A DNA stretch of 52,041 nt from Lachnospiraceae bacterium (lineage in GTDB: Bacteria; Bacillota; Clostridia; Lachnospirales; Lachnospiraceae): assembly GCA_045603305.1 (NCBI GenBank), contig JAZULV010000004.1, positions 1 to 52,041 of the forward strand. The letters run 5' to 3'. Under the pieces are notes generated by a model. The model worked only from the letters and a program-made list of their open reading frames with translations. It did not search any database and was not told where the DNA came from. This document shows positions 21,914 through 44,258 of the stretch, in pieces. Each line of letters starts with the position of its first letter. The stretch's first letter is position 1. The position numbers were made by a program, and so were the translations under genes.

Positions 21914-22384
21914 TTACATCTTATCATATCCAAGGCTCTCAAGAAACTTCTCACACCCAAGCACAATCTCGTCATAGGTCAAATCAAAGTTCCTTGTATA
22001 CCAAGGGTCAGCAATGTCATGAGGCTTGTCCGTAAAATCCAGCAGTCTGCGAACTTTACCCTCGCTGTCGCCGCCTACAATCCTGAGAATTGCCCTTATG
22101 TTCATATCCTCCATACCAAGTATGTAATCGTACCTTTCGTAGTCCGCCCTCGTAATCTGGACCGCCTGCTTTCCATCGCAGGAAATGTTATGCTCCGCAA
22201 GCTTCTTGCACGCAAGGTAGTAAACCGGGTTGCCAATCTCCTCACGGCTGGTAGCCGCAGAGGCGATGTAAAAATCATTTTCTAAACCACGTTTGGACAC
22301 CATGTCCTTTAAGATGAATTCTGCCATAGGTGAGCGGCAGATGTTGCCGTAGCAGACCATGAGCACTTTTATCTTTTCTTTCAT
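21914..22384 (-). CDS. Low-molecular-weight protein-tyrosine phosphatase
   Basis: 156 aa starting MKEKIKVLMVCYGNICRSPMAEF, which is the CX5R P-loop (C-YGNIC-RS) of LMW-PTP/ArsC-type phosphatases. A DP(W)Y motif lies near the C-terminus. Confidence 0.85.
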   Translation of the reverse strand: MKEKIKVLMVCYGNICRSPMAEFILKDMVSKRGLENDFYIASAATSREEIGNPVYYLACKKLAEHNISCDGKQAVQITRADYERYDYILGMEDMNIRAILRIVGGDSEGKVRRLLDFTDKPHDIADPWYTRNFDLTYDEIVLGCEKFLESLGYDKM

Positions 22385-22687
22385 AAATTCTCAAATCCTT
22401 TCAAATGCCCATAAATACTGGGTTTGTGGAGTTTTTCATATTTTTGCTGTTTTGTCATTTCTTCTCAAAATAGAGCGTATTTTCTCAGGCAAGTGGTATA
22501 TAAATTGGTATATTTTCAAAAATTTATACCAGTAAATTTGACTGGTATAAATTTTCGCGAGTCCGCATAAACACTAGCTTTGCGAGACGTTCCATGGCAA
22601 ATTAACACACCAAAAACGCCTATTTTGAAGCTGGAAAGGCATGAATTTGTACCACGTTTTTACCACATATGGCAACTTGCTTTTTTT

Positions 22688-23894
22688 ACGCTTCCTTTGT
22701 TTTCAAGTAATCAAGCCGCTCCATCTCTGCAATTGCATCCTCTGATTTGATATGCGTATAGGTATCAAGTGTCACAGAAATGTCTCCGTGTCCCATGATA
22801 TACTGCAATACCTTTGGATTCATTCCCTACTTCGCCATATTGGTACAAAACGTATGTCTGCACACATGTGGCGTAATCTTCGGCAACTGCACTCGATAAG
22901 TCTTATTATACTTTGCAACCGAAAGCTGGAAGTATTTCTCCCAATGCAATGCTACCCTTGGTTTACTGTTCTTGTCTAAAAATAGAAATCCTGAGTATCC
23001 ATCTATAATCGGCTCAATCTTTGGCGTTGGGCGCATCTTGATAATTCGTTTAAATGCATCCATTACATCTGGCGTCATCGGAACCTCACGAACACCATTC
23101 TCGGTTTTCGTTTTCTCACAAACATACCTCATATCACTGGTACGCTGGAGCTGATGATTGACCTTAATGACTTTCTTTCTAAAATCAATATCCTTAATGG
23201 TCAAACCACAAAACTCGCTGATGCGAAGTCCCGTCTTGAACAAGATATAAAATGCATCATAGTATTGGCTATAATGGTCGTCCTCCAAAATAAACTGAAG
23301 GAACTTTCTCTCCTGTTCTCTTGTGAGTGCATCCCTTTTGACACTATCATTCACAACTACCGTATGAAGTTCGAACTGAAAAGGATTCTTGACTATCATA
23401 TCATCATCTTCCGCCATCTGAAATGCAGGACGAAGTACGCCTCGTACGGTATGAATGGTACTGTAGCCACGCCCATTCTTCTGCATGTTAATCAGAAAAA
23501 TCTTTGCATCCGATGTTTTGATACTCGCAATCTTCCTTTGTCCGAAAGGTTCTTTCGCCAAGATATTTTGCACAAATTTGTACCCAGTCTGAGTGCTGTG
23601 TTTTACTCCGGTTTTTGTCATCAAATATTTCTCTACCAATTCACAAACCGTAATATCCTCACAACAGATTTCTAGTCTTAGTTTTTTCTCAATCTCCTTA
23701 ATTTTTTCTCTCAAGGATTTGTCTTTTCGCTTTCCTGCCGGCATAGGGTCCGAAGCAGTAAGTCTCCAACTGTAAACCGTTTTCCTCTGACCAAATGGGG
23801 TAGTATAACGATACGCATAACGCCCATCGTCTAACTGGTTTTCTCCCATTTGAAGCACTCTACCTTTATTGTCACGTCTCTTTGTATTACTCAT
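22688..23894 (-). pseudogene. int: Tn916-family tyrosine integrase (Int-Tn-like) interrupted by an in-frame amber codon at 22827-22829
   Basis: The N-terminus MSNTKRRDNKGRVLQMGENQLDDGRYAYRY... closely parallels Tn916 Int (MSEKRRDNRGRILKTGESQRKDGRY...). The ORF reads ...HVCRHTFCTNMAK then TAG, and the same frame continues GMNPKVLQYIMGHGDISVTLDTYTHIKSEDAIAEMERLDYLKTKEA*. That continuation carries the conserved C-terminal HxxR and catalytic-Tyr motifs. RBS AAAGGAGAA precedes the ATG at 23894. Confidence 0.8.
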
Positions 23895-23961
23895 AATCAT
23901 TCTCCTTTCAAAGAGCTGTGACATGGCTTACAGTTAATATATCATAGCTCTTTAGATTTTT

Positions 23962-24168
23962 CTATATTGCTTCCAATGTATCTACGAATTTCTCAAATTT
24001 TACTCGCTTAATTTGAACACGATTCCCATTCCAAAGAAGGTAATCTGCATTCTTATTCTGATTGATGAGTCTACGCAATTTATGCTCACCGATTCGAAAA
24101 TAAGCTGCTGCTTCCTCCACTGTTAAAGTATACTTCTCCCACAAAGGAACATTCTGACTATGCTTCAT
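23962..24168 (-). CDS. xis: Excisionase (Tn916 Xis-like)
   Basis: 68 aa reading [68 protein letters not shown]. It is collinear with Tn916 Xis ([33 protein letters not shown]...). Confidence 0.8.
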
Positions 24169-24739
24169 CTACATTCACGCCCCTTTCCTTTAATCTTCGA
24201 TGTAGGTCTATTACTAGTCCCATTGTTTCATCCATCTTTTGAAAGTATCTACACGATCCAACTTCATCACCTTTAGCCTCTGCTAAGTCTGACTTCGCAT
24301 CATAATATCTTGCCTTCACATCTAGATAGCGATAACGAAGTAAATCATATTCCAGTTCCAGGGCTGCATATTTTTTCTTCATTTCAATCAATCCATCCCT
24401 TGCTTCCGTCTCCTCTTTAGGCGGATATGGATAAGGCTTTAACCTGATAGGATAGATAGAACGCAAATCCTCTATAACTGCCTTAAATTTCTCCTCGTCT
24501 AAGTAAAACTTCCATCCAAAGCTTTTGACAATTCCATCCTCATCCTCCAAGGCTCGAAGCATCTGATACCGAGCCGTTGCCTCCGGCAATCCCAACTCCT
24601 GCATCAAGTACTCCTTGATTTCTTCCTTCTCTTTGCCCTCACTACCAAGGAACTCACAAATGTGTCTGTACTTACAAAAATGTTCTAACCACTGTTTCTG
24701 CATTTTCTTTTCCTCCTTCTGTTTAGTACTTAGGGTCAA
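24158..24739 (-). CDS. Hypothetical protein (193 aa) upstream of and overlapping xis
   Basis: ORF with RBS GAAGGAGGAAAAG. It is Lys/Glu-rich. No motif was recognised. Confidence 0.5.
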
Positions 24740-25392: not shown

Positions 25393-27186
25393 TTATACAA
25401 CAAACACCTTACAACTTAATTCTAATAAATAATTTAGCCAATTATCCATGTTTTCTTGTGACCACTCTTCGTACTGTTCAAATTTAGCATTTATGTGATA
25501 CTCCGACTGCATATATATTAGTCTTTTCTCTTCATATGGCTTATTCTTAACACGTTCACCATTTTCTTCTAATGTTAAAAGTGTCAAATTGCGTAATTCA
25601 TTGATATCAAAGGTAGGTTCAACACCATCCTGGGGATTTTGTGAATAAATATGTTCAATAGACACATTCTCAAAATTGATAACAGTTCCTGTCTCTGCAT
25701 GCGGTCTTCCATTAGCACCATCATCACACCACTTATGGTATTCATTCAATGTCGCAAACAAATATTTGAGTAATTTATTACTACCTTTCTTTATATATTT
25801 CAAAGATTTAAGATTTTCCTTGAACAAAGCATCCCCTGCTTCTGAAACAATTAGGGGTCTAAGCTGTTCTGTCAAATGACCGACTCTGTACTCCAACAAA
25901 TTATCACGAATATATTTTGCTTCCTTCATAAAAATATCCGCAACTTTTTGATGTTTATTATTGCAAATACCTTTATATCTAAACATAAACCTTTCAAGCA
26001 TTTGAACAATATCGTTAAATTTGGTGTGATTCAACTCCGCTGCAGAAATAAGCAATGCTAACGTTATTTCATAATCCAGGTAATCAATCAAGTTCTTCAG
26101 TCTATTTCTATCCCATACAGTTATTGGTTGCCTTCCTTCAAATGGCCACTCACCCGACTGAATCTTGTAAAATTTGCAACTAGCCTCGTATATAGCCTCA
26201 ACAATGCTTACAACTTTTTCTTTTTCTTCTTCAGTATATTCTGCTTTATTTTCCGTTATTCCAAATATATTTTCTATGTAGTCATCAAATAGCGAATTAG
26301 TTCCCGCTCGTTTTCCCATAACGGACATATAATAATACCTTAAAAATCTGTCGACAGCCTTGCTCTCTCCTGATAATATCTCATCCCACTTGTTAAGAAT
26401 CAAATCTTCTTCCCTTGACGAACTATCTTTTGCCACAATTTCCAAAGTTCTCGATTTTAACAAATCTCCTACAGTCAGTCCCATTCCTCGATCATTTAAA
26501 ACCTGGAATAAAGTATATGCATCTCTTTTAGTCTTTGCATCAATAAATATGATAGTACAGCATTTATCGATTGCATCTTCAATATTTGCTAATACATTTA
26601 TTTTTTCATTAAAATCCGATTCTTCATCAACGCTTGTAGACACATACGAAAGCAACTTCTCATAGGCTTTATTCATTCTTTTATGAGACTCTCTGTTTCC
26701 CGCCTTTGGTGTACCAGAAATAATTGCTTCATAACATTCCTCGTCAGCATGTGACACCGTTAAATGTCGCACAACCACTGGTTTGCGATTTATTTCATCT
26801 TCATAATTAATATATTTTCGTTCTATCTTCTCCAAACGTTTCTTGACAATTATAGAACTATCTTCATCGGGTGCCAATGCGATAATCTCCCCATATTTTT
26901 TATAGATAGACAATATCAACAACATTGTAGTGGTTATTCTTTGTTGGCCATCCACTAATTCTCTCTGTTGTCTATTAGACCCCGGTACTGTTTTTTCAAC
27001 ACATACAATTCCCCCAAAAAAATGATCCTTATTATTCTGATTCTTAATTAGTGTCGCCACGTCTCTAATGTAATCTTCAACCTGCTCATCTTCCCATGCA
27101 TAATATCTTTGATATTTGGGAACTTCAAATAAAAAATTTTGTTCAAAAATCTTTCCTATAGTAGTATATGATGGAAATATATCCAT
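25393..27186 (-). CDS. GmrSD-family type IV (modification-dependent) restriction endonuclease: DUF262 N-terminus plus DUF1524 C-terminus
   Basis: 597 aa. The N-terminus has FEVPKYQRYYAWE and VDGQQRITT, the ParB-like DUF262 motifs. The C-terminus has IEHIYSQNP, a His-Me finger / DUF1524-like motif. RBS GGAGGATAAAG. Confidence 0.75.
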   Translation of the reverse strand: MDIFPSYTTIGKIFEQNFLFEVPKYQRYYAWEDEQVEDYIRDVATLIKNQNNKDHFFGGIVCVEKTVPGSNRQQRELVDGQQRITTTMLLILSIYKKYGEIIALAPDEDSSIIVKKRLEKIERKYINYEDEINRKPVVVRHLTVSHADEECYEAIISGTPKAGNRESHKRMNKAYEKLLSYVSTSVDEESDFNEKINVLANIEDAIDKCCTIIFIDAKTKRDAYTLFQVLNDRGMGLTVGDLLKSRTLEIVAKDSSSREEDLILNKWDEILSGESKAVDRFLRYYYMSVMGKRAGTNSLFDDYIENIFGITENKAEYTEEEKEKVVSIVEAIYEASCKFYKIQSGEWPFEGRQPITVWDRNRLKNLIDYLDYEITLALLISAAELNHTKFNDIVQMLERFMFRYKGICNNKHQKVADIFMKEAKYIRDNLLEYRVGHLTEQLRPLIVSEAGDALFKENLKSLKYIKKGSNKLLKYLFATLNEYHKWCDDGANGRPHAETGTVINFENVSIEHIYSQNPQDGVEPTFDINELRNLTLLTLEENGERVKNKPYEEKRLIYMQSEYHINAKFEQYEEWSQENMDNWLNYLLELSCKVFVV

Positions 27187-27212
27187 TTCTTTATCCTCCG
27201 TCTACCTTGCCT

Positions 27213-27878
27213 CTATGCATTAAATGTTATTTTAATTTTATCTGAGAGTTTTTTTTCCTTTATCCACTCTATTATTTCACTTGACAAATCGCCTATTGTC
27301 GCTTTTCCGTCACTAGCCAATCTTAAAAACAGCAATATTTCCGAATCTTGTCCAAGCTCTAAATCATCCAAAATCTGCTCTGCATCCATTTTCCCTTGTT
27401 TCAGATAATTATAACTTTCAACTGAACCATTCCATGTACTTGCTTTTTTTATTTTATTAATTGCAAATGTCGCTCTACTCTCATCTGGCAATATTCCTCT
27501 CACCACATTCAGCAAGCTAAGTATGTTCTCAGTAGTTGCTATATAATACTCTGTCCACTCTTGCCCCAACACAGCATACAATTTCTTTGATTCAGATGAA
27601 ATATATTGTGTTGTTGCATTATTCGCAGCTCCTGATTGAACCACTTTGTCACATGCAACCAAAAAGCCTTTTAACGCACTTACCACATTAGCAGATGGTC
27701 TAAAATCCGAGTTTTCAACTGCAAGATTAACCTCATCAATTATTTGCTTTAAACTTGCAATCAACTGTTTAAAGTTGTAGTCCGCAGTCGCCTGCTTCTT
27801 AGTATCTGCAGAAGCTGTTTCCATTTCGCGAACAGTCTTCATATCAATTATGCATTCATTTAATGTATCAATTAACAT
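27213..27878 (-). CDS. Hypothetical protein (221 aa). It is the last of a three-gene overlapping unit.
   Basis: RBS GGAGGGGA. Its start overlaps the preceding gene by 7 nt. No motif was recognised. Confidence 0.5.
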   Translation of the reverse strand: MLIDTLNECIIDMKTVREMETASADTKKQATADYNFKQLIASLKQIIDEVNLAVENSDFRPSANVVSALKGFLVACDKVVQSGAANNATTQYISSESKKLYAVLGQEWTEYYIATTENILSLLNVVRGILPDESRATFAINKIKKASTWNGSVESYNYLKQGKMDAEQILDDLELGQDSEILLFLRLASDGKATIGDLSSEIIEWIKEKKLSDKIKITFNA

Positions 27879-30800
27879 ACTGTCCCCTCCAATTCAGCAA
27901 TTATTCTACTGCATTCACTAATAGTAACTTTCTCATTATCGAATACATTTTGAGAACCTGTTGGATTACTTCCTCCTCCAAGTTTTGCTTTTCGTACATC
28001 GAGTTCAGCCTGAATCTTTGCTATGTCAGCAACAACTTTCTTTAATAGCAGTTCCAATTTTTCAACTTTTCTAATAGGATCTTGTGAAAATGCCAAAATG
28101 CAATCTAAAGCATTTGCTGTTTTCTGTGCAGCAACTATTTCTTTAATCGCTTTGCTCGTTGACGTAGAGTATTTCTTAACTTCATCAAACAACTCCTGAT
28201 CATACTTTCCAGGCAGCTTTCCATCCTCTGCGGTTCTATAAAATTCAACTATCTTTTCAACCATATCTTCAATTTCTTCGTCATCAACATCCGTTGTTCC
28301 AAAATTTTCTTCGATAGTTGTCATTATCTCAGCAGCCTTTGCAAGCTCATCATCCCGAACTTTATCAAGTCTTTCTAAAATCGTCCTGAGATAATCTCGG
28401 GCATCTCTACGCGGCTTAACAGGATCAACCAAATCTAATACGGAAGATTCAACTGTCAATTTTTCATTTTTAACAGTTCTTACCATTGCATCAAATTTTT
28501 CTCTGTCTAAGAATACTTGCACACGACTCTCACCTTGAATAACATTGCAATACTGTATTACAGTATCTCTATTAATCTTATCATTCTCACTTCTCGTAAT
28601 GATTCCGAGTAACGAATTCCATGCATCTGAATGAGAATTAACACCTAAACCTCTTATTCCATTATCAAGAATGTGTTCTGCTTTTAATCCTTCAACTGTT
28701 GTAGCCTTTGATGACCCAAAGAGAATAACACGATAAAATTCAGCCATCATAGCGCATTTGAAATAATCTATATCTCTATTCTCAAATGTAGTAATGACCT
28801 CTATTAAAGGCTTCTTTATTTTCTCTGTCCAGAGTTGAACTCGATATACACGTCTATCTGCACCGTCAAAATTCCAGCTACGTTTACCAAGTACATTCCA
28901 TTCAAGAAACGCCTCGATAACAGCCTGGGTCTCTCTATCTGCTGGAAGTTTATAAAACATCTGATCCGCGCCTCGCTTCTGACGATCGAAACCTACCAAA
29001 CGGTCCTTTACCCTTTTAATTTTATCAATGTTATCCATAGAAACACCCTCAGCCTGCCAATCAATAGCTGAGTATAAGTAACTGCACATATCCTCTCTTG
29101 CTTTTGAAATTAGAACAACATTACCCGTAGTGGCACCAACATTAATGGTACCTCCTGCAATCCAATTTTCTATTACTTGCAAGCTTTCATTAAGCTGAGC
29201 TCTTTCAGCCTGAATCTTCTGTTCTGCTGCAATCTGCGCAGGTGTTTTTACCACAGTCGTACTTGTTGGAGTTTGACCTGCAGGCTGGTTTGCCGGCTTA
29301 GATTGTGTAGGTTTTCCAGATACTTTCTTTCCGTTTATAAGTGGAAATCCCATATCCTCATATACCTGTGTTGAAAGTCCTGATATATAAGTAGCTTCAC
29401 CTTCTTGGTAAATATCAGTTGTTGCATCACCCCAGATACACATAAAAAGATACATTCTTTCAAACTGTTCATTTGAAGCACCGGTCTTCTGAATAGCATC
29501 TCTAAGGCTTGAATTGATATTTGTATTTATGATTTTAAACCCAGGGAAATTATCAAAATTCCACAAGGCATCTCGAACAGTTTTTTCTACAACATCTCTT
29601 AACAGATATCGAGGGGTTCGATAATTCTCTTGCAAAAGATTATTATACAAATACACTATTGCTCTTCTTGAAAATGGGAAAAGATTTAATGATTTTCCTT
29701 CTTCGGTTATAGCAACATCCCATCCATTACCTTGCTTCACTTCATGCACAGGCAAAGAATCTCCTGAGCCATCCGAAGCAGCCCACTCATCAACTTCATC
29801 TTTAGGTAAAGACATTGCATTCAAGTATCTTCCCACAAACTCGCATAAATCAGCTTCACTAGAGCCGAAAACATCATCTGGGATTACAATGAACTGAGTA
29901 ACACGATCCTTATAGTTATCACGGAAATTACTCTTATAATATTCGCTTGTAGTTCCAATAATTGATGAAATTCTACACATACCTTCCTGCTCGTAATCAC
30001 CGGTATGCCACGTAGTAAGTACATTTAGTAACGCTTCATTGACACCTGTAAAAGCCGTAATATCTTCTATCAACAGCGTTAATGATTTACCTTGCTTCTT
30101 TAATTCTTTTCTTATTTCTTTAAATACCTGTTCAAAGTCTCCTGGTTCCAATCCCGCGCAGCTCTGAATTACTGTATCAACCTTTGAATTAAGATATTTG
30201 GCTACAGCATCTGCAACCTCTGGCTCCATATACAACTTTTCGAGCAAACGTACAGCCTTTTTATCTCCTCCGTCATACTGAACTTTGTCACAGAATGCGA
30301 TATCAACTTGAAAATCCTCTGAAAGGAATTCAGGAACAACATCTCGATTATCTGATGTACTGCTTTCAGCAACTTTAGAATAAATTCTTGCAATTGGACC
30401 ATCATCCGCCATCATTCGTGCCTTAAACAATTCATTATTTAAAAGTGGTGCAATTCTCTTTCTATCAGCATTATTAAGATAATCAATATCTTCGCCATTA
30501 TCATCCTCTATTTCAACAATAAACTGATGATAAATAGCATTCATCAATTTGCTCTCACTAATAGTTGATGTCGCATTAACTAATCTCTCATATAAATCTT
30601 TATTCTGAATGGATGCTACTTCCGGTTTTTCTAAAAGCTGCTTAATTGTTCCTTTCAATGTGTTGTCACTTCTTCGCACAAAAAGAACAACCTCGCTATC
30701 TGGTTTCTGCTTTTCTATTTTTGCATCAAACCATCTAATCAGATGAGATTTACCTGCACCACTTGATCCAATTACAAGAACAAACTGATGCTGATCTTTT

Positions 30801-30991
30801 GGATTTAGTACGACTCTTTTGTATATCTGTTCTTCCGTATATGCTTTGGATGCCGCACTCGAATCATATTCCTTTTGCAATTTAATTTGCTTGAAAGGAA
30901 CATGCGTAGCCATAAAATCACCATATGAACTGGTAATAGTATCTATTCTTACTACTTCTGATAATCTCTGTTTTGCAACTTCTGAATTCAT
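27872..30991 (-). CDS. Large P-loop NTPase (about 1039 aa) of unknown family
   Basis: The ORF track opens on TTG. A likely ATG at 30989-30991 follows an AGGGGG RBS. Walker A is VLVIGSSGAGKSHL and the Walker B-like motif is TLLIEDITAF. There is an internal low-complexity linker (KPTQSKPANQPAGQTPTSTTVVKTPAQIAAEQKIQAERAQ) and a long helical C-terminus. Confidence 0.65.
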   Translation of the reverse strand: MNSEVAKQRLSEVVRIDTITSSYGDFMATHVPFKQIKLQKEYDSSAASKAYTEEQIYKRVVLNPKDQHQFVLVIGSSGAGKSHLIRWFDAKIEKQKPDSEVVLFVRRSDNTLKGTIKQLLEKPEVASIQNKDLYERLVNATSTISESKLMNAIYHQFIVEIEDDNGEDIDYLNNADRKRIAPLLNNELFKARMMADDGPIARIYSKVAESSTSDNRDVVPEFLSEDFQVDIAFCDKVQYDGGDKKAVRLLEKLYMEPEVADAVAKYLNSKVDTVIQSCAGLEPGDFEQVFKEIRKELKKQGKSLTLLIEDITAFTGVNEALLNVLTTWHTGDYEQEGMCRISSIIGTTSEYYKSNFRDNYKDRVTQFIVIPDDVFGSSEADLCEFVGRYLNAMSLPKDEVDEWAASDGSGDSLPVHEVKQGNGWDVAITEEGKSLNLFPFSRRAIVYLYNNLLQENYRTPRYLLRDVVEKTVRDALWNFDNFPGFKIINTNINSSLRDAIQKTGASNEQFERMYLFMCIWGDATTDIYQEGEATYISGLSTQVYEDMGFPLINGKKVSGKPTQSKPANQPAGQTPTSTTVVKTPAQIAAEQKIQAERAQLNESLQVIENWIAGGTINVGATTGNVVLISKAREDMCSYLYSAIDWQAEGVSMDNIDKIKRVKDRLVGFDRQKRGADQMFYKLPADRETQAVIEAFLEWNVLGKRSWNFDGADRRVYRVQLWTEKIKKPLIEVITTFENRDIDYFKCAMMAEFYRVILFGSSKATTVEGLKAEHILDNGIRGLGVNSHSDAWNSLLGIITRSENDKINRDTVIQYCNVIQGESRVQVFLDREKFDAMVRTVKNEKLTVESSVLDLVDPVKPRRDARDYLRTILERLDKVRDDELAKAAEIMTTIEENFGTTDVDDEEIEDMVEKIVEFYRTAEDGKLPGKYDQELFDEVKKYSTSTSKAIKEIVAAQKTANALDCILAFSQDPIRKVEKLELLLKKVVADIAKIQAELDVRKAKLGGGSNPTGSQNVFDNEKVTISECSRIIAELEGTVC

Positions 30992-30993
30992 AC

Positions 30994-31788
30994 TCAACCC
31001 CCTATCGTAATATGGGTAACTGTAGTCTCAAGCTCATGTCCTTCACAGGGATATAACGACCATATTTCTTGAGCATCCAGTCTATGCTCTGCTTTGATTA
31101 CTCCTAAATCGTTGAGCATTCTAATCGCATTTGAAAAACCATAATTAAATGTCTTTGTATCAACAGTATTATGCAAGGCGATTTTTGCATACGGCATTAT
31201 CACATCGACAAATTCATCTATTGCATATTCTGTTTTTTTCTTTAACTTGAGGCTTTCAATAATATCTCTGAGAAAAGCGGCTGCATTTGGAAGCAAAATA
31301 CCAGCAGCACCAGCCTGTGAGTCATGCATATACCCAAATCCCAGAAACGCCATCCAGAATCTCCACGCACGCATATCATCCTCTATTACTTTTTCTCCGA
31401 TATTACGTTCCATAACATCACTCATTTTAGAAACACTATTATGGTCAAGCACTTCTGTTCCCATGTCTAAATACCCTTGAGTAACCTTATAGAACAAGCT
31501 ATCTGAAACAAGCTCCAAGTGCATATTGATATAATGCCTCATGTTATCCATGCTTTTTACTGCATCCTTATCTACCGCTAACGAGATTGTATTTTCCTTT
31601 GTATTTATAAGCTGCAATTGTTCTGCAGCAGTCCTTACAATACCAAAATAAGGCGTCTTACCTCCGAGGTTCTGCGGTTCAAGCAATAGTTTTAGTGTAT
31701 TCTCATCCATTGGCTTGCTTGCCACTTCTCTACAAAGTGCATATACTCTTTCAGGTATTGCAGATGTTTGCATTCTATTTCCAAACAT
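30994..31788 (-). CDS. Hypothetical protein (264 aa)
   Basis: ATG with RBS AAAGGATG. Its stop lies 2 nt from the start of the ATPase gene. No motif was recognised. Confidence 0.5.
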   Translation of the reverse strand: MFGNRMQTSAIPERVYALCREVASKPMDENTLKLLLEPQNLGGKTPYFGIVRTAAEQLQLINTKENTISLAVDKDAVKSMDNMRHYINMHLELVSDSLFYKVTQGYLDMGTEVLDHNSVSKMSDVMERNIGEKVIEDDMRAWRFWMAFLGFGYMHDSQAGAAGILLPNAAAFLRDIIESLKLKKKTEYAIDEFVDVIMPYAKIALHNTVDTKTFNYGFSNAIRMLNDLGVIKAEHRLDAQEIWSLYPCEGHELETTVTHITIGG

Positions 31789-31792
31789 AATC

Positions 31793-34294
31793 CTACATCC
31801 TTTCCAAAATATAACTATCTATCTTTGGCCCTTCGACCATAGCAGATATAGGCTTTTGAACCTTTTGAATAAAGTAATCCTCTTTAACTATGTGAATCAA
31901 TTTAATATCTTTATTCTTATACTTTCTCAATGTCATGCAAAACTCATATACTTTATCTGCACCGGAATTATACAATGCAACAACACCTCCCGAGACATAG
32001 TAACCTGACCCCTGCGTGCACAATTCTCGATATTCTTTGATTCCTAAAATCATTACATTACTCTGCTTACTCATATTAAGAATTAATTCAAAATCATTCT
32101 CAATACTTGTATCCTCAACAACTATTACAACAGCGCCAGCACTCACATAACGATTTATTAAGGAATAATCGTCCTCTTCACCAATAACAAGAACCTCATT
32201 TTCGCCCTGGCACAACTTATTTAATTCGGGTGATATTTGCTTCTTAGGCTCTTTTACTGGTAATAGCAGTGGAAATTTACCCTCTTCCATCGTTTCAGGA
32301 TACTTATGTTTTGCACATCCACCGCAATACATAGACACTTTATCGTATGTAGAATAGAACATTTCCGACCAGCAAATCCTATCACTGAAGTCAATACCAT
32401 TTTTTATTCTCTTGATTTCTCTTTCAAAACCTTCCGACTCTCTATCCCTGATTTCATTTATTATTGCCGGAACATCTGCGGATTCATTTCTAAGAGCATC
32501 ATCCAATATGTCAACACGAATCTTATAACATTCATTTTTAGAATCATAAATCATTGACTTAATTGAAATCAGATTGTGTCGACGCAAAAGAAGAATAACA
32601 TACACATTCCACTGAATGTCTATTTCACTCGCATCGTCATCTTCTTTTGTAACATTGTAAATAGGTTTCACAGCTGTATCTAATGTTACCATTCCCTTAA
32701 ACCACAAGGATGTCTTGCTCTTATACATACTAAGCCAACGTCCCCATATCTTATCTGCGCTAAGAACTTTATTCATTCTCTTATGTGCAGAATCAATGTC
32801 ATCAACTGGATTAATACACATTACACTTAAGCTCACTAACCCATCTCGACCGCCTCGACCAAGCTCCTGGTAGTATTGATTGGGTGTATCCGGAATGTAC
32901 AAATGTAGTACAGTTCGTACATCTCCTTTATCTACACCTACACCAAATGCTGAAGTTGCAATGATTAGATCTATTTTATTATTTGTCCAATCCTTTATTA
33001 TTCTCTCTCTCTCAGCAGACTTTGTATCACCGGTAAATGTCTCTAAGTTATTGAGCCCTGCAGAAACAAGAGTCTTTTTTATCTCTTCCGCTTCCTTGGG
33101 CGAATTAATGTAAACAACCATTGGATGTGGCAATTTTTTTACCAGCTCAATCATCTTTCGTTTTTTATCTGAATAGCTCTTGGCTTTCACAAGCAAATAC
33201 CGTGGCTCATGTCTCAGCGCATCACACCTAATCTCAATCCACTTTCCAGTTGTTGTAAACATTTGCTTAAGTTTCATCACGGCTGTTTTTGTATACGTCG
33301 CAGATAACAACACTGTGCGCAACTGCGAATTCATTACTAACAATTCCTTGCGCCATGGTTCGAGACATTGATAATCTACTCTAAAGAAATCACCCCATTC
33401 AATAACTATATGGGCCTCATCAACAATCAGATTTTTCAAATATTTCTTGGCATTAGCCTCATTTATCATATTCACAAATTCAGTATTTCTAATAAGAGCT
33501 TCTGGTGATATAAACAGCAATCTGGCAGTTTCAGCTTTAAGTGCATTTCTAAGAGCATTTTTACGTTCTAATTCAATTCCGCTGTAATAACAGAATATCT
33601 CATTATCCGCATTATGCTTAACATTATTCTTCGCATTACGAACCTGGTCAATTGCTAACGATACCGTAGGTACTATAACAATTGTAAGCCCTTCTTGTTG
33701 ATATGCCATTGTCTGTGTAATTAAGCTTTTCCCACCACCGGTTGGAAGTGAAACTAGAGTAGTGTATCCTTCTGGAGTGTTCAATGCTCCAAATACTGCC
33801 AGCTTCTGCTCTAAAGACTTGAATTCTTTGTAACAAGTCAAATTGTAAATATATGCATTATTACCATAAAATATATCTTTCTGTTTTTCCGCATCTCCTC
33901 CAACTTTCTTTCTCTGAAATGCCTGGTCCACAAAGAAAGAATCAATATAGACTGGCATTTCAAGACTTGCATAGTATAGCCCTTCCGCATTCAACATAAT
34001 GCCATACTCATTTTCTGGTGGTATCATCCCATCGGGAATGGATATTTCATTCTGAAAAACTAACAAATAGTTTCTCAAAGAGCATAAAAAGACATCTTTA
34101 TTTGCAACTCCCGACTTAAACTTTTCGAAATAGATAACCAATCTTTTTGCTGTATTATATCGGAAGCTATCAATTGCAGAGTCCTCCCCAACGAATGTGG
34201 GCATAGCACCACTGGCATTACCATTTATATAATTTTCAACATAGGTTTCTATCACCTTCGTATCCATTATTTCTTCACCATCCAAACAAAGCAC
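31793..34294 (-). CDS. RecQ-like SF2 DEAH helicase with N- and C-terminal extensions
   Basis: Motif I is LPTGGGKSL, motif II is IVDEAHIV (DEAH) and the RecQ-type motif VI is QELGRGGRDG. The C-terminal roughly 350 aa contain Cys pairs (YCGGCAKHK). The track start is GTG. An ATG at about 34267 (MDTKVIETY) overlaps the stop of the upstream SNF2 gene as TAATG and is the likely true start. Confidence 0.75.
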   Translation of the reverse strand: MLCLDGEEIMDTKVIETYVENYINGNASGAMPTFVGEDSAIDSFRYNTAKRLVIYFEKFKSGVANKDVFLCSLRNYLLVFQNEISIPDGMIPPENEYGIMLNAEGLYYASLEMPVYIDSFFVDQAFQRKKVGGDAEKQKDIFYGNNAYIYNLTCYKEFKSLEQKLAVFGALNTPEGYTTLVSLPTGGGKSLITQTMAYQQEGLTIVIVPTVSLAIDQVRNAKNNVKHNADNEIFCYYSGIELERKNALRNALKAETARLLFISPEALIRNTEFVNMINEANAKKYLKNLIVDEAHIVIEWGDFFRVDYQCLEPWRKELLVMNSQLRTVLLSATYTKTAVMKLKQMFTTTGKWIEIRCDALRHEPRYLLVKAKSYSDKKRKMIELVKKLPHPMVVYINSPKEAEEIKKTLVSAGLNNLETFTGDTKSAERERIIKDWTNNKIDLIIATSAFGVGVDKGDVRTVLHLYIPDTPNQYYQELGRGGRDGLVSLSVMCINPVDDIDSAHKRMNKVLSADKIWGRWLSMYKSKTSLWFKGMVTLDTAVKPIYNVTKEDDDASEIDIQWNVYVILLLRRHNLISIKSMIYDSKNECYKIRVDILDDALRNESADVPAIINEIRDRESEGFEREIKRIKNGIDFSDRICWSEMFYSTYDKVSMYCGGCAKHKYPETMEEGKFPLLLPVKEPKKQISPELNKLCQGENEVLVIGEEDDYSLINRYVSAGAVVIVVEDTSIENDFELILNMSKQSNVMILGIKEYRELCTQGSGYYVSGGVVALYNSGADKVYEFCMTLRKYKNKDIKLIHIVKEDYFIQKVQKPISAMVEGPKIDSYILERM

Positions 34295-37200
34295 GCTGAT
34301 TCAAGTCTAACAGTCGGTTTGGTAAGACTTTCTAATACAACGTCATATATTTCTTTCATCCTATCGTAATCTTCAAGTTCCTGATTATAGTATTCAGAAG
34401 TAGCAACCATTGATGTAAGAATTCTGTCCATCTCTGCTTTAGCCTCTGCCGTATGAGATCTTTCTCTAAGAACCTTTAATGCTTTATCCTTACTAACTTT
34501 TCTTGACTTCTTAACTAAATCTACCCATCTTTCCTGTGGATAAACACTTCTAAAATAGTCAATATTAGTGGCTCTATATTGAGAGAAGATATGTAAAAAT
34601 CCTTCATTCTTACTACGTCTTCCAAGATGATCAATATCATCCTTGCTACTCTCAAAATCACGCTGTAGCATCAGATTAAATTCTCTTATAACCTTATCAT
34701 CCGGTATTTCACCCTCAGCACGAATTCTCACAGGTACCTGTACCTGCTCTACCGCTAGATAGTTTCTAAATACACTCAAATAGGAAAGCGGAACTCCTTT
34801 TTCAATCAGCAGCCTTTCATTTGGATACAGTGACCATGTATAAACAAAACCAGTCCAATTTATACTTGACTTCATCGCAAAGGCTGCTGCCTGACCTCTA
34901 CAAGACCTCATTGCATTATCAACAATACAATCGAATATATCATCTCCAGGTGCAAAGAAGTGAATATAGTCGTTTTCAATTGCCTTCTTTCTACTAAAGG
35001 TACCATCAATCGACCGGCTATGATGCATTGTGTTTTTATCCTGCTTGTCCTGTCTTAATTCATGTATCTTACTAATAAACTGATTTTGTTTCTGTGCAAA
35101 ATATGAATCCCAATCCGGAGGAATTAGCAATGAATTTTCTGCAGATCTTGTTGAGAAGGAATTATCACTAAAACTAATAACCTCGTCCTTTTCCTCAACA
35201 TCTCTAAACCCTGCAAGCATTGCCCATTGAAGCATCGCATCCGCAAACATTTTATTTTCATTACGATTATAGTATTTAACCAAACTAATCAATTCCTGAT
35301 TCATCGGTCTATAGATATACGCCGCAGTATCAAAATGCTGTTCTTCACGCACTTCTTCTTTTAGCTTTGCTGATCTTTCAATTACATTCTGTATTTCATT
35401 TGTTAATCCAAATCTGAAATCTTTAATAATAGCTGATACTATCGCATTATTAATATCATTCATAATAATCTCTAATCCACTCAGAGAATGATTAAATATT
35501 TTCAATCCGTTGTTCCAGAACTTAAACAGCTCTTCTTCCAATGTTTCTTCTGCATAAGGAACCACAGATACGATAGGTCGTCCACTTTCTCTTCCCATAC
35601 GATCCAGTCGACCTATTCTCTGTTCTATTGCATTTGCATCCCACGGCAGGTCAATATGAACCACATAGTCCGCGCATTGGAAGTTTCTACCTTCTCCACC
35701 TGATTCATCACAAAGCATGATTGTACAATTCTTATCATTTTGAAATTTGCAAACATTAACCTCTAACTCATCAGCAGACATGCCTCTTCTAAAACAACTG
35801 AATCCGTCCTCTGTATAAAAGTCAGCAAGCATTTCTTCATATACTTCAAAAGTCTCTTTATAATTTGTAAATAACACAACTTTTGAATCAGTTGCATATT
35901 CATCAAGATAGTACATCGTCTGCACTATTCTAGAAGTATGTTCTTCTGGCTCATCCAGAACACCTACAATATTCTCGGCAATGTCCTGTTCATACATTTT
36001 CCATCTATGTAGATTTTCCTTCAGGCTATCCGGTATAACCACTCCATCTGCTTCCAAGAACTTAACCTGCTGTTCAAAAGCCCATGGTGAACTAAAGAAC
36101 GTACCAAAAAGAGGCTTGAATATCTTTTCAAATTTCTCTTCCGTTATTTCCTTTTCAGTAATCCATGTCACTAAATCCTGATATGCACCGTATTCATAAA
36201 AGTTTTTATCCGGATCTAAAGCATACGGAAGCGAAGTTAGCTGACGCTCCGGCAAATCTTCAAGTGTTTCTCTTCTATTTCTGATAATATTCTTTTCAAT
36301 CTGATAATTTTCACACAAGTACGAAATAGCAACTTTGAAATGATGAAGGCCCAAATCATCGTCATCAAAATCAGCCTTTTCATACATTTCTTTAAGCATT
36401 TCATCTCCTACGTTTTTATAAAGCTTTTTAAAACCGCTCAGAATATCCTCGTAGAAATCCTCGCTATCTTCATTATCATGCGGATTTTCTTCTGCCTCTA
36501 AAGAGTCTCTAAAAATCTCATCTAAATCCTCAATATTAGACAACACCATTGCTGCCACTTTAGTAATATTTCCTTGTTTTTCAACCAATTCATCAAATTG
36601 CTCTTTAGTACAAGAATCATACTTTTCAGGAAGAATCAAACGAAGTAAATCCAGATAATCTGTTCTCTTCTGCTGAACTGGCGTAGCACTAAGCAAAAGC
36701 AGATTTGTAGTGTTGCAACTCAGTCTATGGAACGCATCATAATATGCCTTATATCTTAACAATCTGTGTGCTTCATCAATTATTGTAAAATCCCATTGTT
36801 CTTTACATTCTCGATCAGCTGCTGTCTCTAGCTCTGCAAATGTAATAAAGTTATTATTCTCATTTTTTCCTTCATACAAGTCGAACTTTAAGAACAGCTC
36901 CGTTTTCCATTGTCCTAACAATGCCCCTGGAACAACAATCAATGCATTAACATCACTATGTCTTGAGAAATACACCTTCAAAACAGATGCTGCTTCGATA
37001 GTTTTACCCATACCAACCTCGTCAGCTAGCATATATCTGCAAACGTCATCCTGAAGACATCTCATAATAGACTTAAGCTGATGCGGCATTAGAAAAATCT
37101 TGCAACCCGCTAATTCTTTAAATCCCATAATAGAATTATCCAGAACATTCATTGTCTTTGTAACAATACTTCTACCAAACAGCCAGCAAGGATTTTGGAA

Positions 37201-37605
37201 TTCATAACCCTGCAACTGAGAAGCCGGATCCACTTTGCCTACCATGAATGGTGCTATAATTCGATTTTCCGGAACACAAATTAATGTTTTGTCATACTCG
37301 TTCTCAATATAATAATCATAGAATTCATCTTCCTTTTTTACACAGGCTACAACCTTATACTTCTCCTTCTCGTAGAGAACAATCGAGCCCACAAAGAACT
37401 GACATCTTTGAACCATTGATGTTGGAAGAGGCGCAGTTTTTGGGAAGTTGTCATAATACACTCGATAATTAAATGGGTCGTTAAAAACAACCTCGACAGT
37501 ATCTGCGTAACTATCTATTTTAGTAATCTGCCCCATCAAAAAATCACGCGGATTAATCATGTCATAATCAATCGGACAGCGTACATACATCTTCTCTAAT
37601 AACAT
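34267..37605 (-). CDS. SNF2/RAD54-family helicase (1112 aa)
   Basis: SNF2_N motifs LADEVGMGKTIEAASVL and TIIDEAHRL. The helicase-C motif is IDLPWDANAIEQRIGRLDRMGRESG. It has roughly 150-aa N-terminal and roughly 450-aa C-terminal extensions. RBS AAAGGATGAG. Confidence 0.85.
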   Translation of the reverse strand: MLLEKMYVRCPIDYDMINPRDFLMGQITKIDSYADTVEVVFNDPFNYRVYYDNFPKTAPLPTSMVQRCQFFVGSIVLYEKEKYKVVACVKKEDEFYDYYIENEYDKTLICVPENRIIAPFMVGKVDPASQLQGYEFQNPCWLFGRSIVTKTMNVLDNSIMGFKELAGCKIFLMPHQLKSIMRCLQDDVCRYMLADEVGMGKTIEAASVLKVYFSRHSDVNALIVVPGALLGQWKTELFLKFDLYEGKNENNNFITFAELETAADRECKEQWDFTIIDEAHRLLRYKAYYDAFHRLSCNTTNLLLLSATPVQQKRTDYLDLLRLILPEKYDSCTKEQFDELVEKQGNITKVAAMVLSNIEDLDEIFRDSLEAEENPHDNEDSEDFYEDILSGFKKLYKNVGDEMLKEMYEKADFDDDDLGLHHFKVAISYLCENYQIEKNIIRNRRETLEDLPERQLTSLPYALDPDKNFYEYGAYQDLVTWITEKEITEEKFEKIFKPLFGTFFSSPWAFEQQVKFLEADGVVIPDSLKENLHRWKMYEQDIAENIVGVLDEPEEHTSRIVQTMYYLDEYATDSKVVLFTNYKETFEVYEEMLADFYTEDGFSCFRRGMSADELEVNVCKFQNDKNCTIMLCDESGGEGRNFQCADYVVHIDLPWDANAIEQRIGRLDRMGRESGRPIVSVVPYAEETLEEELFKFWNNGLKIFNHSLSGLEIIMNDINNAIVSAIIKDFRFGLTNEIQNVIERSAKLKEEVREEQHFDTAAYIYRPMNQELISLVKYYNRNENKMFADAMLQWAMLAGFRDVEEKDEVISFSDNSFSTRSAENSLLIPPDWDSYFAQKQNQFISKIHELRQDKQDKNTMHHSRSIDGTFSRKKAIENDYIHFFAPGDDIFDCIVDNAMRSCRGQAAAFAMKSSINWTGFVYTWSLYPNERLLIEKGVPLSYLSVFRNYLAVEQVQVPVRIRAEGEIPDDKVIREFNLMLQRDFESSKDDIDHLGRRSKNEGFLHIFSQYRATNIDYFRSVYPQERWVDLVKKSRKVSKDKALKVLRERSHTAEAKAEMDRILTSMVATSEYYNQELEDYDRMKEIYDVVLESLTKPTVRLESACFVWMVKK

Positions 37606-37623
37606 AATCTCATCCTTTCATCG

Positions 37624-40287
37624 TTAGTTTCTTCCATATTTGTATGGTTCCAAACAAATCTCTCTTACACCACAGTACTGACACCACTCATCACAAGATT
37701 TTGCACAGCCAGTTGCATTTACTCTGTTACTGCTTAATCTCGCATCGATTTCACCCTGCGGAACATCCTTAAAATACCCAAAGAAGCTTCCATCACCATT
37801 TCCAAGTTGAAGGTAAATGAACTCCTCACGTTTTTTCATATATATGTCATCCGTAGGACTTATCATTGGAAATGTAGTACCATTTTTAAGCACACTCTTT
37901 TGCAAATAGTTTTTTGCATTCGTAATAATATCCATACGCTCTGTGTGCATATCCTTAACAAACTCAAACTTTCGTTCAAGTTTTTTATACTCATCATTTA
38001 AAGTATCAAGCAACACATCCTCGGTAGCAATCTGTCCCTGCAACACAACTCTCGCCACATTCTCCAACAAAATCTCCAAGTATTTTAACAACAGAAAATG
38101 ATCCCTAAAAACTGCCCTCTTCTCAATTGTAGATTCCAACAAAAATCTGTATTTACATATCTTGTATCGGTAGAAATCATATTGTCCATAATTATTCTCT
38201 GTATTAAGTTCAAGGTGCAAATTTCTTACTGCTTTCGGTAAAGTTCCAGTAGGTTTATCTTTTGGATAAACTTTCTGAGCCTCCAATATCTTCAACAAAT
38301 AGAACATCTCATTCTCTTTATCATCAACATTTTTTACATAGCTTAACTTAAACTTTACCCTGTTAAACTGGAGCCCATATATCAACGCATATCTCTTAAA
38401 ATTCTTATACTCTCTTCTAGATTTAACATAAACCTGGTACTTCCAATCAATTGGATCTTGCGCAACTTCAAAGAAAGTCACGTCCAAAGGCCATGGAAAT
38501 CTATCTCTTCGAGTTACGTTCATATCGTTATCTGAAAGGCAGGCAAAATGATATATTATATCCTTATTCTGTTTTCTACTCTTTAAGATATCGCCATCAA
38601 TCTGCTCAAAATCTCTTACTATCCAATTTGCACTTATCCCCTTTTTAGTCTCCTGTTTCAGATAATAAGCCATTGTCTCTTTCAGCACATCAAAAGAACC
38701 TGTAGCGTCAATCTTATCAACCTCTTCCAAGCGAATGAGCACACGCTTTACTACATCTCTAAATTCATCTTCAATATCTTCCGCTTCAAGTATTCTTGTT
38801 TCAAGGAACTCTTTTATTCTCTTATAGAATTTTTTAAAGTTATTCTCTGTATCCTCAAAATCTGCATAAAATAGCTTTGTAATCTGATCCAGCTGCTCCA
38901 ATGCCGCAACTAATGTATCTATTTCCTCTGAAGTAACGTCAAAGTATACCAATCTACTACCTATGCGTTTTTCAGTTACATCTTTCTCAGCTTTTTTAAT
39001 TCGCTTCTTAAGCTTTCCTAATAGGTCAGTTATCTGATCAATGGTTTCCGCACGTACAAAAAATTCTTTTGTTCTGTTGAAAATAGAATAAAGCTTTCCA
39101 GGAGTTTCTTCTTTTATAAATCCTGAATTCAGACATTCTACAATATCATTCATATTTTCAATCTGAATTCCACCTTCCTCTGGATTCCACATATTCGTAA
39201 TGGAAAGAAAAAAATGTCCAATAGGATATGTCAGGAAATGACGTTCACCAAATTGTCCTGGGTAATAAATCTTGAGGATATTGTTTACGCTGTTATTAGC
39301 CGCATAGAATTGCTCTTGCATATAATAAAGCGTTGATCGCCTTACGTCTTTATCTCTTTCTTGGCGTTTCAATGCGTCCTCAAATACACTAGCAACATAG
39401 CTGGCAAACTCCGTATTATTATCAAACTCCATTACTTCAAAAGGACAATCTTCTTCATTTTCTTCCGGATGTCCCTCTATTAAATTTGCCATTCTATCTG
39501 CTAGCAAATTTCCTTCATAGCTATTCGTCAGCAATGGATTAGGCTTAAACTCATTCGTAAACTGACTTTTGATAGGCATGTCAAATGATGAATATACATC
39601 TATCCATGTCTGATATACATTCTTGTACTGCTGCTGATAATTGAACAAAAGAATTACTCTTTTATACTTTGCCACCAATTCAATAGTTTGAAGAATCATT
39701 GGCGAAAACTGATGTACTCCATGAATCACAATGGTATCTAAATCAACAGCACTTATGTCTGCGTCTTCACGTTCTAACTTCATGCCTTCTCGAATCGCAT
39801 TCTCGATTTCAGCTTCTGAAAAATGTCTTTTCAACGTAAAATCCTGAACCAAATCTGATTTTCTTATTATTCTATAAAGCTCTACAAGGTGGCGTTGTTC
39901 CTCTGTCAACAAATCAGTTCGCATTTCATCAAGGCTCATATCTAGTTCAAACAAAATGCGCAAACTATTACTGAGTTGCTTTCTATTGAATCTTAGCGAC
40001 TGCCTAATCTTTTCTGAATTATCCGTAATGTTCAATCTGGAGATAGCCTCATCTATCACGGTGTATTGCTTTATTTTGCATTCACTGCTTTCCCAATATG
40101 CAAAGAGTCCTTTTACCAAGTTCTCAACAGTAGATACTTTACCTGCTGTCATATCTTCGTACGTTCCCATCATTCCGTTTGCCATAGTTTGTGACACACA
40201 GAAATGAGGGCTATTTTTAATGGAATCCCAGTATAATTCTTTATTTATTTCATATGGATTGCTGTATGTATAAATAGAAAACGGCAT
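37624..40287 (-). CDS. Hypothetical 887-aa protein with a C-terminal Cys cluster that resembles the iron-staple of RecB-family nucleases
   Basis: RBS GGAGGTG. It has no P-loop. A lone Cys lies in HFACLSDNDM about 280 aa before the C-terminus, and the last 30 aa read GCAKSCDEWCQYCGVREIC, which contains C-x2-C-x5-C. That arrangement is used by AddB, Cas4 and Dna2 to frame a PD-(D/E)xK domain. The nuclease motifs themselves could not be confidently located by eye. Confidence 0.5.
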   Translation of the reverse strand: MPFSIYTYSNPYEINKELYWDSIKNSPHFCVSQTMANGMMGTYEDMTAGKVSTVENLVKGLFAYWESSECKIKQYTVIDEAISRLNITDNSEKIRQSLRFNRKQLSNSLRILFELDMSLDEMRTDLLTEEQRHLVELYRIIRKSDLVQDFTLKRHFSEAEIENAIREGMKLEREDADISAVDLDTIVIHGVHQFSPMILQTIELVAKYKRVILLFNYQQQYKNVYQTWIDVYSSFDMPIKSQFTNEFKPNPLLTNSYEGNLLADRMANLIEGHPEENEEDCPFEVMEFDNNTEFASYVASVFEDALKRQERDKDVRRSTLYYMQEQFYAANNSVNNILKIYYPGQFGERHFLTYPIGHFFLSITNMWNPEEGGIQIENMNDIVECLNSGFIKEETPGKLYSIFNRTKEFFVRAETIDQITDLLGKLKKRIKKAEKDVTEKRIGSRLVYFDVTSEEIDTLVAALEQLDQITKLFYADFEDTENNFKKFYKRIKEFLETRILEAEDIEDEFRDVVKRVLIRLEEVDKIDATGSFDVLKETMAYYLKQETKKGISANWIVRDFEQIDGDILKSRKQNKDIIYHFACLSDNDMNVTRRDRFPWPLDVTFFEVAQDPIDWKYQVYVKSRREYKNFKRYALIYGLQFNRVKFKLSYVKNVDDKENEMFYLLKILEAQKVYPKDKPTGTLPKAVRNLHLELNTENNYGQYDFYRYKICKYRFLLESTIEKRAVFRDHFLLLKYLEILLENVARVVLQGQIATEDVLLDTLNDEYKKLERKFEFVKDMHTERMDIITNAKNYLQKSVLKNGTTFPMISPTDDIYMKKREEFIYLQLGNGDGSFFGYFKDVPQGEIDARLSSNRVNATGCAKSCDEWCQYCGVREICLEPYKYGRN

Positions 40288-40290
40288 CCC

Positions 40291-43407: not shown

Positions 43408-43428
43408 GACGTTTACCCCCAATGTACA

Positions 43429-44247
43429 TTACTCAAAGAAGTCCTCATTAATCTTATACACTGTATAGGTCTGAACCTTTTCAAGTCCAATACCATACTT
43501 AATCATCAATTCTGCGAGCAAATCCCCATCTATAAGTTTCAAACTTTTCTGCTGCTGTTTTTCAGCATAATTTCTTGCTTCTTTTGTAAATGAAGACGTT
43601 GTAATAAACACACCTTTTTGAACATCCTGCATAGCACCAACAAAAGCCTGTAACAACGGTCTTCCAACTGTATTACTACTATCATTTCTTTTTGCCTGAA
43701 TATATATCTTACTTAATCCAAGCTTGTCCTCATATATTACGCCGTCAATACCACCATCATGAGATTTACCTAATACACGACCCGACAATTCATCCGAGCC
43801 ATATCCCATTTCAAGTAACAAATTAACCACTAACCGTTCAAAGAAACTTGGGTGACATTCCATAATATGATCCAAAATTTGTCGTTTCATGTTACTCTTA
43901 TAGAAATGATACGTACGATCTATCTTTTCTTCTGGTAACAAGTCGTCCTCTGACACCAGTTTTTCTTTCTCCTCTTCCTTTTCAGTCGAGTTCTCTTGTC
44001 CTTCCTTTACTAATGCATAAAGATTCCTTGTTCCCTTCTGTCCTACAATATGAAAATATTTAACCGGCGATGCACCAGGGAAGTCCAACCCCTCACAATG
44101 ACAACGTAGTTTCGCATTGACTGCCGCCTCTGGATCCTTAGCCCCAAACTGGTATAAGTTCCTCTCTTTAATTTTTAAATACGCTTCTTTATATGTTAAA
44201 CTCTCATTTTCTTTTAGAACTTCAACCAATGCATCTACAATTCTCAT
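43429..44247 (-). CDS. Mrr-like restriction endonuclease (N-terminal winged-helix plus Mrr_cat PD-(D/E)xK)
   Basis: 272 aa with RBS GAAGGTGA. The catalytic region is GGIDGVIYEDKLGLSKIYIQAKR, a D...QxK Mrr-type core. It lies 11 nt downstream of dndA in the same orientation. Confidence 0.7.
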   Translation of the reverse strand: MRIVDALVEVLKENESLTYKEAYLKIKERNLYQFGAKDPEAAVNAKLRCHCEGLDFPGASPVKYFHIVGQKGTRNLYALVKEGQENSTEKEEEKEKLVSEDDLLPEEKIDRTYHFYKSNMKRQILDHIMECHPSFFERLVVNLLLEMGYGSDELSGRVLGKSHDGGIDGVIYEDKLGLSKIYIQAKRNDSSNTVGRPLLQAFVGAMQDVQKGVFITTSSFTKEARNYAEKQQQKSLKLIDGDLLAELMIKYGIGLEKVQTYTVYKINEDFFE

Positions 44248-44258
44248 ACGTTCACCTT

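Follow-up and report, generated by a model that had tools for sequence, protein, structure and literature searches.

Tn916 makes use of coupling sequences and can enter a large number of AT-rich sites, and Tn1549, a vanB ICE, likewise shows low target specificity. ICESt1 and ICESt3 integrate in the 3' end of fda, rebuilding the end of their target gene. The integrase locus considered here lies in a 52,041-nucleotide stretch of DNA (positions 1 to 52,041 of Lachnospiraceae bacterium contig JAZULV010000004.1), which we refer to as the window. It resembles the Int/Xis module of Tn916 in that a PF02920 arm-binding domain is followed by a C-terminal tyrosine-recombinase domain with the nucleophile at residue 379, and in that a PF09035 Xis is encoded next to it. 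The closest solved relative is the integrase of Tn1549 (PDB 6EMY, 6EMZ, and 6EN0-2), with which all catalytic positions align, although only about half of the residues are identical and the window copy has a premature stop. We consider it likely that a genuine, very recent, and lineage-private nonsense mutation has inactivated the integrase gene of a site-specific element of the Tn916/Tn1549 type that sits in the 5' end of a gene for a low-molecular-weight phosphotyrosine phosphatase (LMW-PTP).

The integrase gene (int) runs on the minus strand from 23894 to 22686 and, as delimited by PF02920, PF00589, and homologues, comprises 402 codons starting with MSNTK, of which codon 356 is TAG. Its frame has two possible starts on that strand, ATG 23894 and an upstream ATG at 23924; the former is more likely to be used because it is preceded by a well-spaced AAGGAG and because most homologues start there. 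The frame proceeds through HTFCTNMAK to TAG (22829-22827), resumes with GMNPKVLQYIMGHGDISVTLDTYTHI, and ends in TAA (22688-22686). In other words, the residues ahead of the stop are PHVCRHTFCTNMAK, and the same frame picks up behind it as GMNPKVLQYIMGHGDISVTLDTYTHIKSEDAIAEMERLDYLKTKEA. In Pfam searches, Integrase_DNA (PF02920) matched residues 13-81 of the 365-aa ORF with an E value of 1e-27. The match to Phage_integrase (PF00589) was split by the stop: profile positions 3-141 align ahead of it and 144-170 behind it. When the TAG was read through in translation, a single unbroken PF00589 match at 2e-32 resulted. A chance arrangement of ORFs around the TAG could be ruled out, as more than 60 intact proteins of 402 aa match both flanks at 94-99% identity. 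The frame, the Pfam matches, and the homologues all bear out an earlier, sequence-only reading that had described an in-frame TAG in a Tn916-type integrase at these coordinates, with the small adjustment that 22688, given there as the end, is the first base of the TAA and that the gene extends in full to 22686. The amber codon itself occupies 22827..22829 (minus strand), with 22828 as the mutated base. Behind it, the orphaned 3' segment of int (22686..22826, minus strand) has kept its frame open from Gly357 to Ala402, including His369 and the nucleophile Tyr379, and these 46 codons are identical at the protein level to the closest homologue. Directly upstream of int sits an intact excisionase gene, xis (23962..24168, minus strand; 68 aa), that matches PF09035 (Tn916-Xis) at 3.6e-20.

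The ancestral state of codon 356 was assessed with the best 120 of at least 8,000 matches in a large protein collection, which are 79-99% identical to the Int of the window. Nearly all of these 120 are 402 aa long (412 aa if the upstream ATG is used), and every one reaches the C terminus. None has a premature stop at codon 356, where the residue is Ser in 115 of the 120, Ala in three, and Phe in two. Tyr379 and Arg346 are present in 120/120 and His369 in 118/120, and Met358 is invariant in the family alignment. A comparison of the same locus in relatives, as the earlier reading had proposed, found a sense codon throughout: codon 356 is TCT, TCA, TCC, or TCG in all 10 full-length relatives for which DNA was compared, and it is TCN in L004, L005, and L087 as well. 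The related locus L007, from a Lachnospiraceae metagenome-assembled genome (MAG) with an integrase of 96% protein identity, reads TTT TGT ACC AAT ATG GCG AAG TCG GGA ATG AAT CCA AAG GTA around the site, and these 14 codons are identical to those of the window save for TCG, which is TAG in the window. Because L007 keeps TCG in an otherwise identical 14-codon context, the lesion is, on this comparison, one C-to-A transversion on the coding strand at base 22828 that turned Ser356 (TCG) into TAG; on the plus strand, the base is now T and was presumably G. The change is thus a single nonsense substitution and not a frameshift, as had been proposed. A scan of species-representative genomes returned 80 relatives, of which none represents the window's own genome and the best is 96% identical. 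One 96%-identical integrase (P0014) carries the NCBI label "Thermoguttaceae bacterium" (Planctomycetota); all other named hosts belong to the Lachnospiraceae or Clostridia, and the label is likely to reflect a mis-binned or mislabelled record.

The full catalytic set, R224, H343, R346, H369, and Y379, is encoded in frame but is split by the TAG at codon 356: Arg224 and the His343-x-x-Arg346 motif come first, whereas His369 and Tyr379, the nucleophile, are encoded beyond it. The claim that the catalytic Tyr is removed therefore holds, and the loss extends to His369. Among solved structures, the best matches are the Int-DNA complexes of Tn1549, 6EMY, 6EMZ, and 6EN0 (E=1.7e-85 over residues 81-394), and the N terminus matches the N-domain structures of Tn916 Int, 1B69 and 2BB8 (E=2e-20). 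The three deposited Tn1549 sequences differ from one another at two positions, those of Tyr379 and Arg224: 6EMY, the Y-to-F variant, shows F opposite Tyr379, and 6EMZ, the R-to-K variant, shows K opposite Arg224. These are the usual catalytic-site substitutions, which marks both residues as catalytic. By established mechanism, a tyrosine recombinase without its nucleophilic Tyr binds DNA but cannot cleave it. By descent, the window int is a member of the Tn916 integrase family, but what it encodes is not a complete tyrosine recombinase. The 355-aa product would retain the N-terminal arm-binding domain, the core-binding domain, Arg224, His343, and Arg346 and would be without His369 and Tyr379. 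Such a protein might still bind DNA but would neither cleave nor join it, and the element would be unable to excise or reintegrate by means of its own Int. Since the tyrosine-recombinase mechanism needs the nucleophilic Tyr, we infer that the 355-aa product cannot cleave DNA and that autonomous excision has been lost.

The alternative that survives best is that the TAG is absent from the genome, having come from a mistake in base calling or consensus building or from a minority variant carried into the consensus, and that the integrase is intact and functional. We regard this as unlikely, though it deserves serious weight. The TAG allele appears private to the window sequence, being found in no other public assembly among collections without a sister strain, and such uniqueness would suit an error. 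The truncated Int products (355 and 365 aa) have no exact record in the protein collections; neither do the host LMW-PTP and the GmrSD protein of the island, which is what points to collections without a sister strain of the window. When metagenomes were scanned for the 34-nt haplotype with N at the mutated base, one contig (L087) was returned, and it reads TCG. Four recorded contigs contain the 45-aa orphan ORF, with TCA or TCT wherever codon 356 is visible; these four were rejected as further carriers of the TAG, as they represent contig ends, short-fragment gene calls, or a scaffold gap, and none has TAG. L004, which was considered as an independent frameshifted integrase, was likewise rejected, as the alignment shows a run of Ns and a 46-nt gap, which is an assembly artefact. 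The one other premature stop in the family is an independent, in-frame TGA at codon 368 of L014 (6680-7888; GGA to TGA, YIM*HGD), ahead of Tyr379 and 12 codons downstream of the stop position of the window; the coverage of this MAG contig is 2.6x, and the TGA may be an error.

The rest of the gene looks healthy. Six nucleotide states in int are private to the window, namely three synonymous changes, A162E, G310S, and the nonsense change, and at columns conserved to at least 95% the window has one private residue against a median of two per homologue among the best 120. This private-substitution test gave no signal of relaxed selection on int. With no other decay in the gene, the nonsense change must have arisen very recently or else be an error of the consensus, and this pattern suits the two equally; the faithful match of the 46 downstream codons to the closest homologue and the lack of excess private substitutions thus also fit an error. 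A G-to-T change, which is what the plus strand shows here, is also a signature of oxidative (8-oxoG) library damage, and the observed substitution fits that signature. Moreover, apparent lesions in public assemblies often prove to be artefacts, as the low coverage of L014 and the scaffold gap of L004 illustrate. Against an error speaks that consensus substitution errors are rare where assembly coverage is adequate. No other interrupted gene was noticed among the approximately 35 main ORFs examined in the 52 kb, and the larger intergenic gaps of the window yielded no recognizable gene remnant; both points suggest that the assembly is good. Finally, genuine integrase pseudogenes and decayed integrative elements are common among integrated elements (PMC5704250). 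Taken together, we favor a real mutation because the change is a substitution and not a homopolymer indel, because no other broken gene was noticed among the main ORFs of the window, and because decayed elements are common.

If the stop is real, Int might still be partly functional through read-through, through a suppressor tRNA encoded elsewhere in the genome, or through termination and reinitiation at the ATG of Met358, a combination of possibilities that we consider improbable. The sequence at the stop is AAG TAG GGA ATG, which places a native ATG 3 nt past the stop. Reinitiation there could add to the 355-aa body a 45-aa peptide bearing the Tyr, and the two might reassemble. Past the stop, the frame has remained pristine, and a rare excision event would need very few integrase molecules. 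However, this ATG is merely the conserved Met358 and nothing that evolved here, it is not preceded by a well-spaced Shine-Dalgarno sequence, the stop is conserved in no relative and hence is not programmed, and the window contains no tRNA gene. To our knowledge, there is also no precedent for a split tyrosine recombinase that reassembles across the nucleophile-bearing helix. The specific version in which the amber codon is tolerated by read-through or reinitiation and gives a two-piece recombinase, with the 45-residue C-terminal peptide supplying His369 and Tyr379, seems to us more doubtful still; were it true, the stop would be a throttle on excision of the defense island and not a knock-out. 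Programmed stop-codon recoding was rejected, as no relative has a stop at codon 356 and TAG is a normal terminator here. Least credible of all, to the point of being nearly negligible, is the idea that TAG is a sense codon in this organism, by code reassignment or as pyrrolysine: nothing beyond the in-frame TAG itself speaks for it, whereas the homologues carry Ser (TCN) at codon 356, not Lys or Pyl, and TAG ends nine of the 34 other ORFs whose stops were tallied in the window (TAA 22, TAG 9, TGA 3) at points where homologous or full-length domain matches end, the chromosomal genes 6049-8601, 14729-15436, and 15942-16541 being among them. Because of these nine ORFs, the genetic code can be taken as standard in the window, and reassignment of the amber codon is excluded for this stretch.

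A nonsense mutation that very recently inactivated int thus remains our preferred reading, and the surroundings of the gene show what kind of element it affects. The target is the LMW-PTP gene (21914..22384, minus strand; 156 aa), which is reconstituted and intact and matches PF01451 over profile positions 1-144 of 144. Its 5' end (22335..22384, minus strand), up to the codons of the CX5R P-loop (TGCTACGGCAACATCTGCCG, 22354-22335), is an element-borne replacement; homology within the family ends here, and it probably forms the crossover or core region of the element. The noncoding arm on the attR side (22385..22685, minus strand) is conserved across the family, as judged from its repeats and from alignment. 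When the DNA downstream of int was aligned over 15 loci, conservation extended over about 330 nt and on into the LMW-PTP gene for its initial 45-50 nt; past the CX5R-loop codons, the alignment diverges with the host. The LMW-PTP core lies some 330 nt downstream of int, as in the window, in nine of the 15 related loci checked. In L003, L006, L007, L011, and L087, the match to the window breaks off inside the core or adjacent to it, with unrelated DNA beyond. The element-type 5' end of the LMW-PTP (MKEKIKVLMVC) is common to the window and L007 and differs from that of other members. Because conservation runs to the CX5R codons of the LMW-PTP gene and then gives way to host-specific divergence, the alignments indicate that the element integrates site-specifically in the LMW-PTP 5' end, bringing along a replacement promoter and 5' coding end.

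The arm also holds candidate binding sites for Int. TATACCA occurs four times within 56 nt (22494-22549), compared with 16 times in the whole window, and two of the four copies form an inverted pair; GTGGTA occurs twice near the int stop (22650-22666). In sublineages, all copies of the arm repeats switch together to TATGCCA or TAAGACA, and all are intact in the window. Since the TATACCA copies change in concert between sublineages, these repeats are likely to be arm-type Int-binding sites that apparently coevolve with the integrase. At the other end, no attL was found in the window in the form of a second LMW-PTP core copy or direct repeats, and as the last ORF (51331 onward) runs off the end, attL should lie beyond 52,041 or have been lost. 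Several relatives have more complex junctions. In L003 (~470-1712), an LMW-PTP 5' fragment is followed by an acyltransferase gene and then by a complete LMW-PTP gene; L011 (1385-3970) has a 2.6-kb insert inside the arm; and in L007, unrelated DNA follows the LMW-PTP 5' fragment from ~2290 onward. Such arrangements would fit either tandem accretion or secondary insertions into one and the same target.

Beyond xis, the element shows a short conserved backbone and a variable load. The backbone includes an ORF of 193 aa (24158..24739, minus strand) that has no family match and is 99% identical to its counterpart in L001. The window and L001 are 94.7% identical over 22248-25245, comprising attR, int, xis, the 193-aa ORF, and about 500 nt more, and are unrelated beyond. 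Upstream of the 193-aa gene lie 650 nt (24740-25392) that lack a long ORF; L001 shares this sequence as far as 25245, and L009 shares part of it. This segment could hold regulatory elements or an element origin. Then follows at least 26 kb of defense cargo (25393..50889), recognized by domain matches and encoded on the minus strand save for one gene. Read along the minus strand from the far end, the order is an HTH regulator, DndC, DndD, DndE, DndA, an Mrr-type type IV enzyme, a NERD-UvrD helicase, an 887-aa protein with no match, DpdE- and DpdF-like proteins, a 264-aa ORF, a DpdH-like protein, a 221-aa ORF, and a GmrSD-like protein. The presence of DndACDE, the Mrr-type enzyme, the DpdE/F/H-like helicases, NERD-UvrD, and GmrSD-like proteins confirms that this is a defense island. 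The GC content of the cargo is 0.34-0.37, compared with 0.39-0.44 on the chromosomal side. The latter carries housekeeping genes of the Clostridia (a ROK kinase, metK, a MurA-type enzyme, a ChW/LRR protein, and gatAB) and a SAM riboswitch (RF00162, 68 bits; 4400-4497, minus strand), which occupies part of the 660 nt that separate the MurA-type gene from metK (2744-3934).

Between 27213 and 49689, DndA, -C, -D, and -E and the HTH regulator occur without DndFGH or PbeABCD and are accompanied by the DpdE-, DpdF-, and DpdH-like helicases/ATPases, NERD-UvrD, the Mrr-type enzyme, and the no-match ORFs (887, 264, and 221 aa), which may represent a hybrid arrangement of Dnd modification and Dpd-like restriction. 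The one plus-strand gene (49807-50889) encodes a second, divergent PAPS-reductase-like protein of 360 aa with CxxC pairs near the N terminus; it is transcribed divergently from the dnd operon, and its BrxP/SspD-like matches are weak. A 140-nt segment at 50994-51131 has a counterpart of 77% identity at 7161-7296 of L087, some 5.4 kb upstream of the int of that locus, and may mark where the cargo slot ends, as a conserved boundary.

In related loci, viewed to 10 kb upstream of int, the same place is taken by other cargo or by a RepA_N/DnaC-like module, which adjoins xis in L009 and L010. The cargo consists of FokI-like, HNH, DEAD-helicase, and reverse-transcriptase genes in L001, of AIPR, three methylases, and an AAA_15 protein in L009, of a DUF3427 helicase and an HNH protein in L010, and of YaaC, GNAT, and RtcB genes in L012. 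Across the family, restriction-modification, Abi, reverse-transcriptase, and helicase-HNH modules thus stand in place of the Dnd genes and Dpd-like helicases of the window. Clearly, the Int/Xis family is mobile and carries swappable defense cargo next to xis. Conjugation genes (an FtsK/TcpA-type coupling protein, a relaxase, and a VirB4-like ATPase) were not seen in 24.2-52.0 kb, and the element continues past the window. The named hosts of relatives include Roseburia, Acetatifactor, and Agathobacter MAGs and unclassified Lachnospiraceae. In phage and plasmid collections, Int has only distant relatives, at most 60% and 49% identical, respectively; the matches of ~49% identity come from Enterococcus plasmid records and are probably the Tn1549 integrase. 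A literature search retrieved no paper that names the LMW-PTP 5' end as an integration target and nothing specific on nonsense-disrupted integrases of the Tn916 type. Apparently, this element family of Lachnospiraceae-type gut and rumen bacteria is undescribed.

What, then, does the stop mean for the island? The suggestion that the element is immobilized, which would fix the island in place, can be upheld for autonomous excision only, and there as an inference from the recombinase mechanism. The island might still move by other routes: through reversion of the one base, through a related integrase supplied in trans from elsewhere in the genome, or through mobilization in cis once a related element has entered the regenerated target, as described for CIMEs (PMC5704250). 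The term "domesticated" goes too far, as the allele is private, the rest of int shows no relaxed constraint, and Xis, the attR junction, and the arm repeats have all stayed intact. Within collections that lack a sister strain, there is no indication of selection for the stop, of long residence, or of sharing among strains. Inactivation of an integrase by a point mutation, once the element has integrated, is a well-known and ordinary form of mobile-element decay. The stop alone matters little: it tells us only that this copy is probably unable to leave on its own, and it may even be a base-call error. The Int/Xis module could nevertheless serve as a landmark for finding defense islands in Lachnospiraceae-type genomes, and the family would offer a natural test case for how fast the carriers of such islands become stranded.

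In comparison with known systems, the designation Tn916-type is apt for Int and the adjacent Xis, by virtue of PF02920 and PF09035, but not for target choice. Unlike Tn916, with its many AT-rich sites, the family of the window is specific for the 5' end of the LMW-PTP gene; the 27 kb adjoining its xis are defense cargo, with no Tn916 conjugation genes there; and, unlike Tn916 Int, the window Int ends before His369 and Tyr379. The family also recalls the decayed ICEs, IMEs, and CIMEs of streptococci (PMC5704250), in that the junctions of L003, L007, and L011 fit tandem accretion. Compared with the streptococcal CIMEs (PMC5704250), however, the window still has its int, one base from intact, and a whole xis, while its attL lies outside the window. 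The likeness to ICESt1 and ICESt3 concerns the way in which the target is treated: integration occurs inside a conserved gene, the element supplies a replacement end, and the gene stays functional. In contrast to the 3' end used by ICESt1 and ICESt3, the target in the window is a 5' end, so that promoter and start codon must come from the element, and, again unlike in ICESt1 and ICESt3, its core overlaps the codons of the catalytic CX5R loop.
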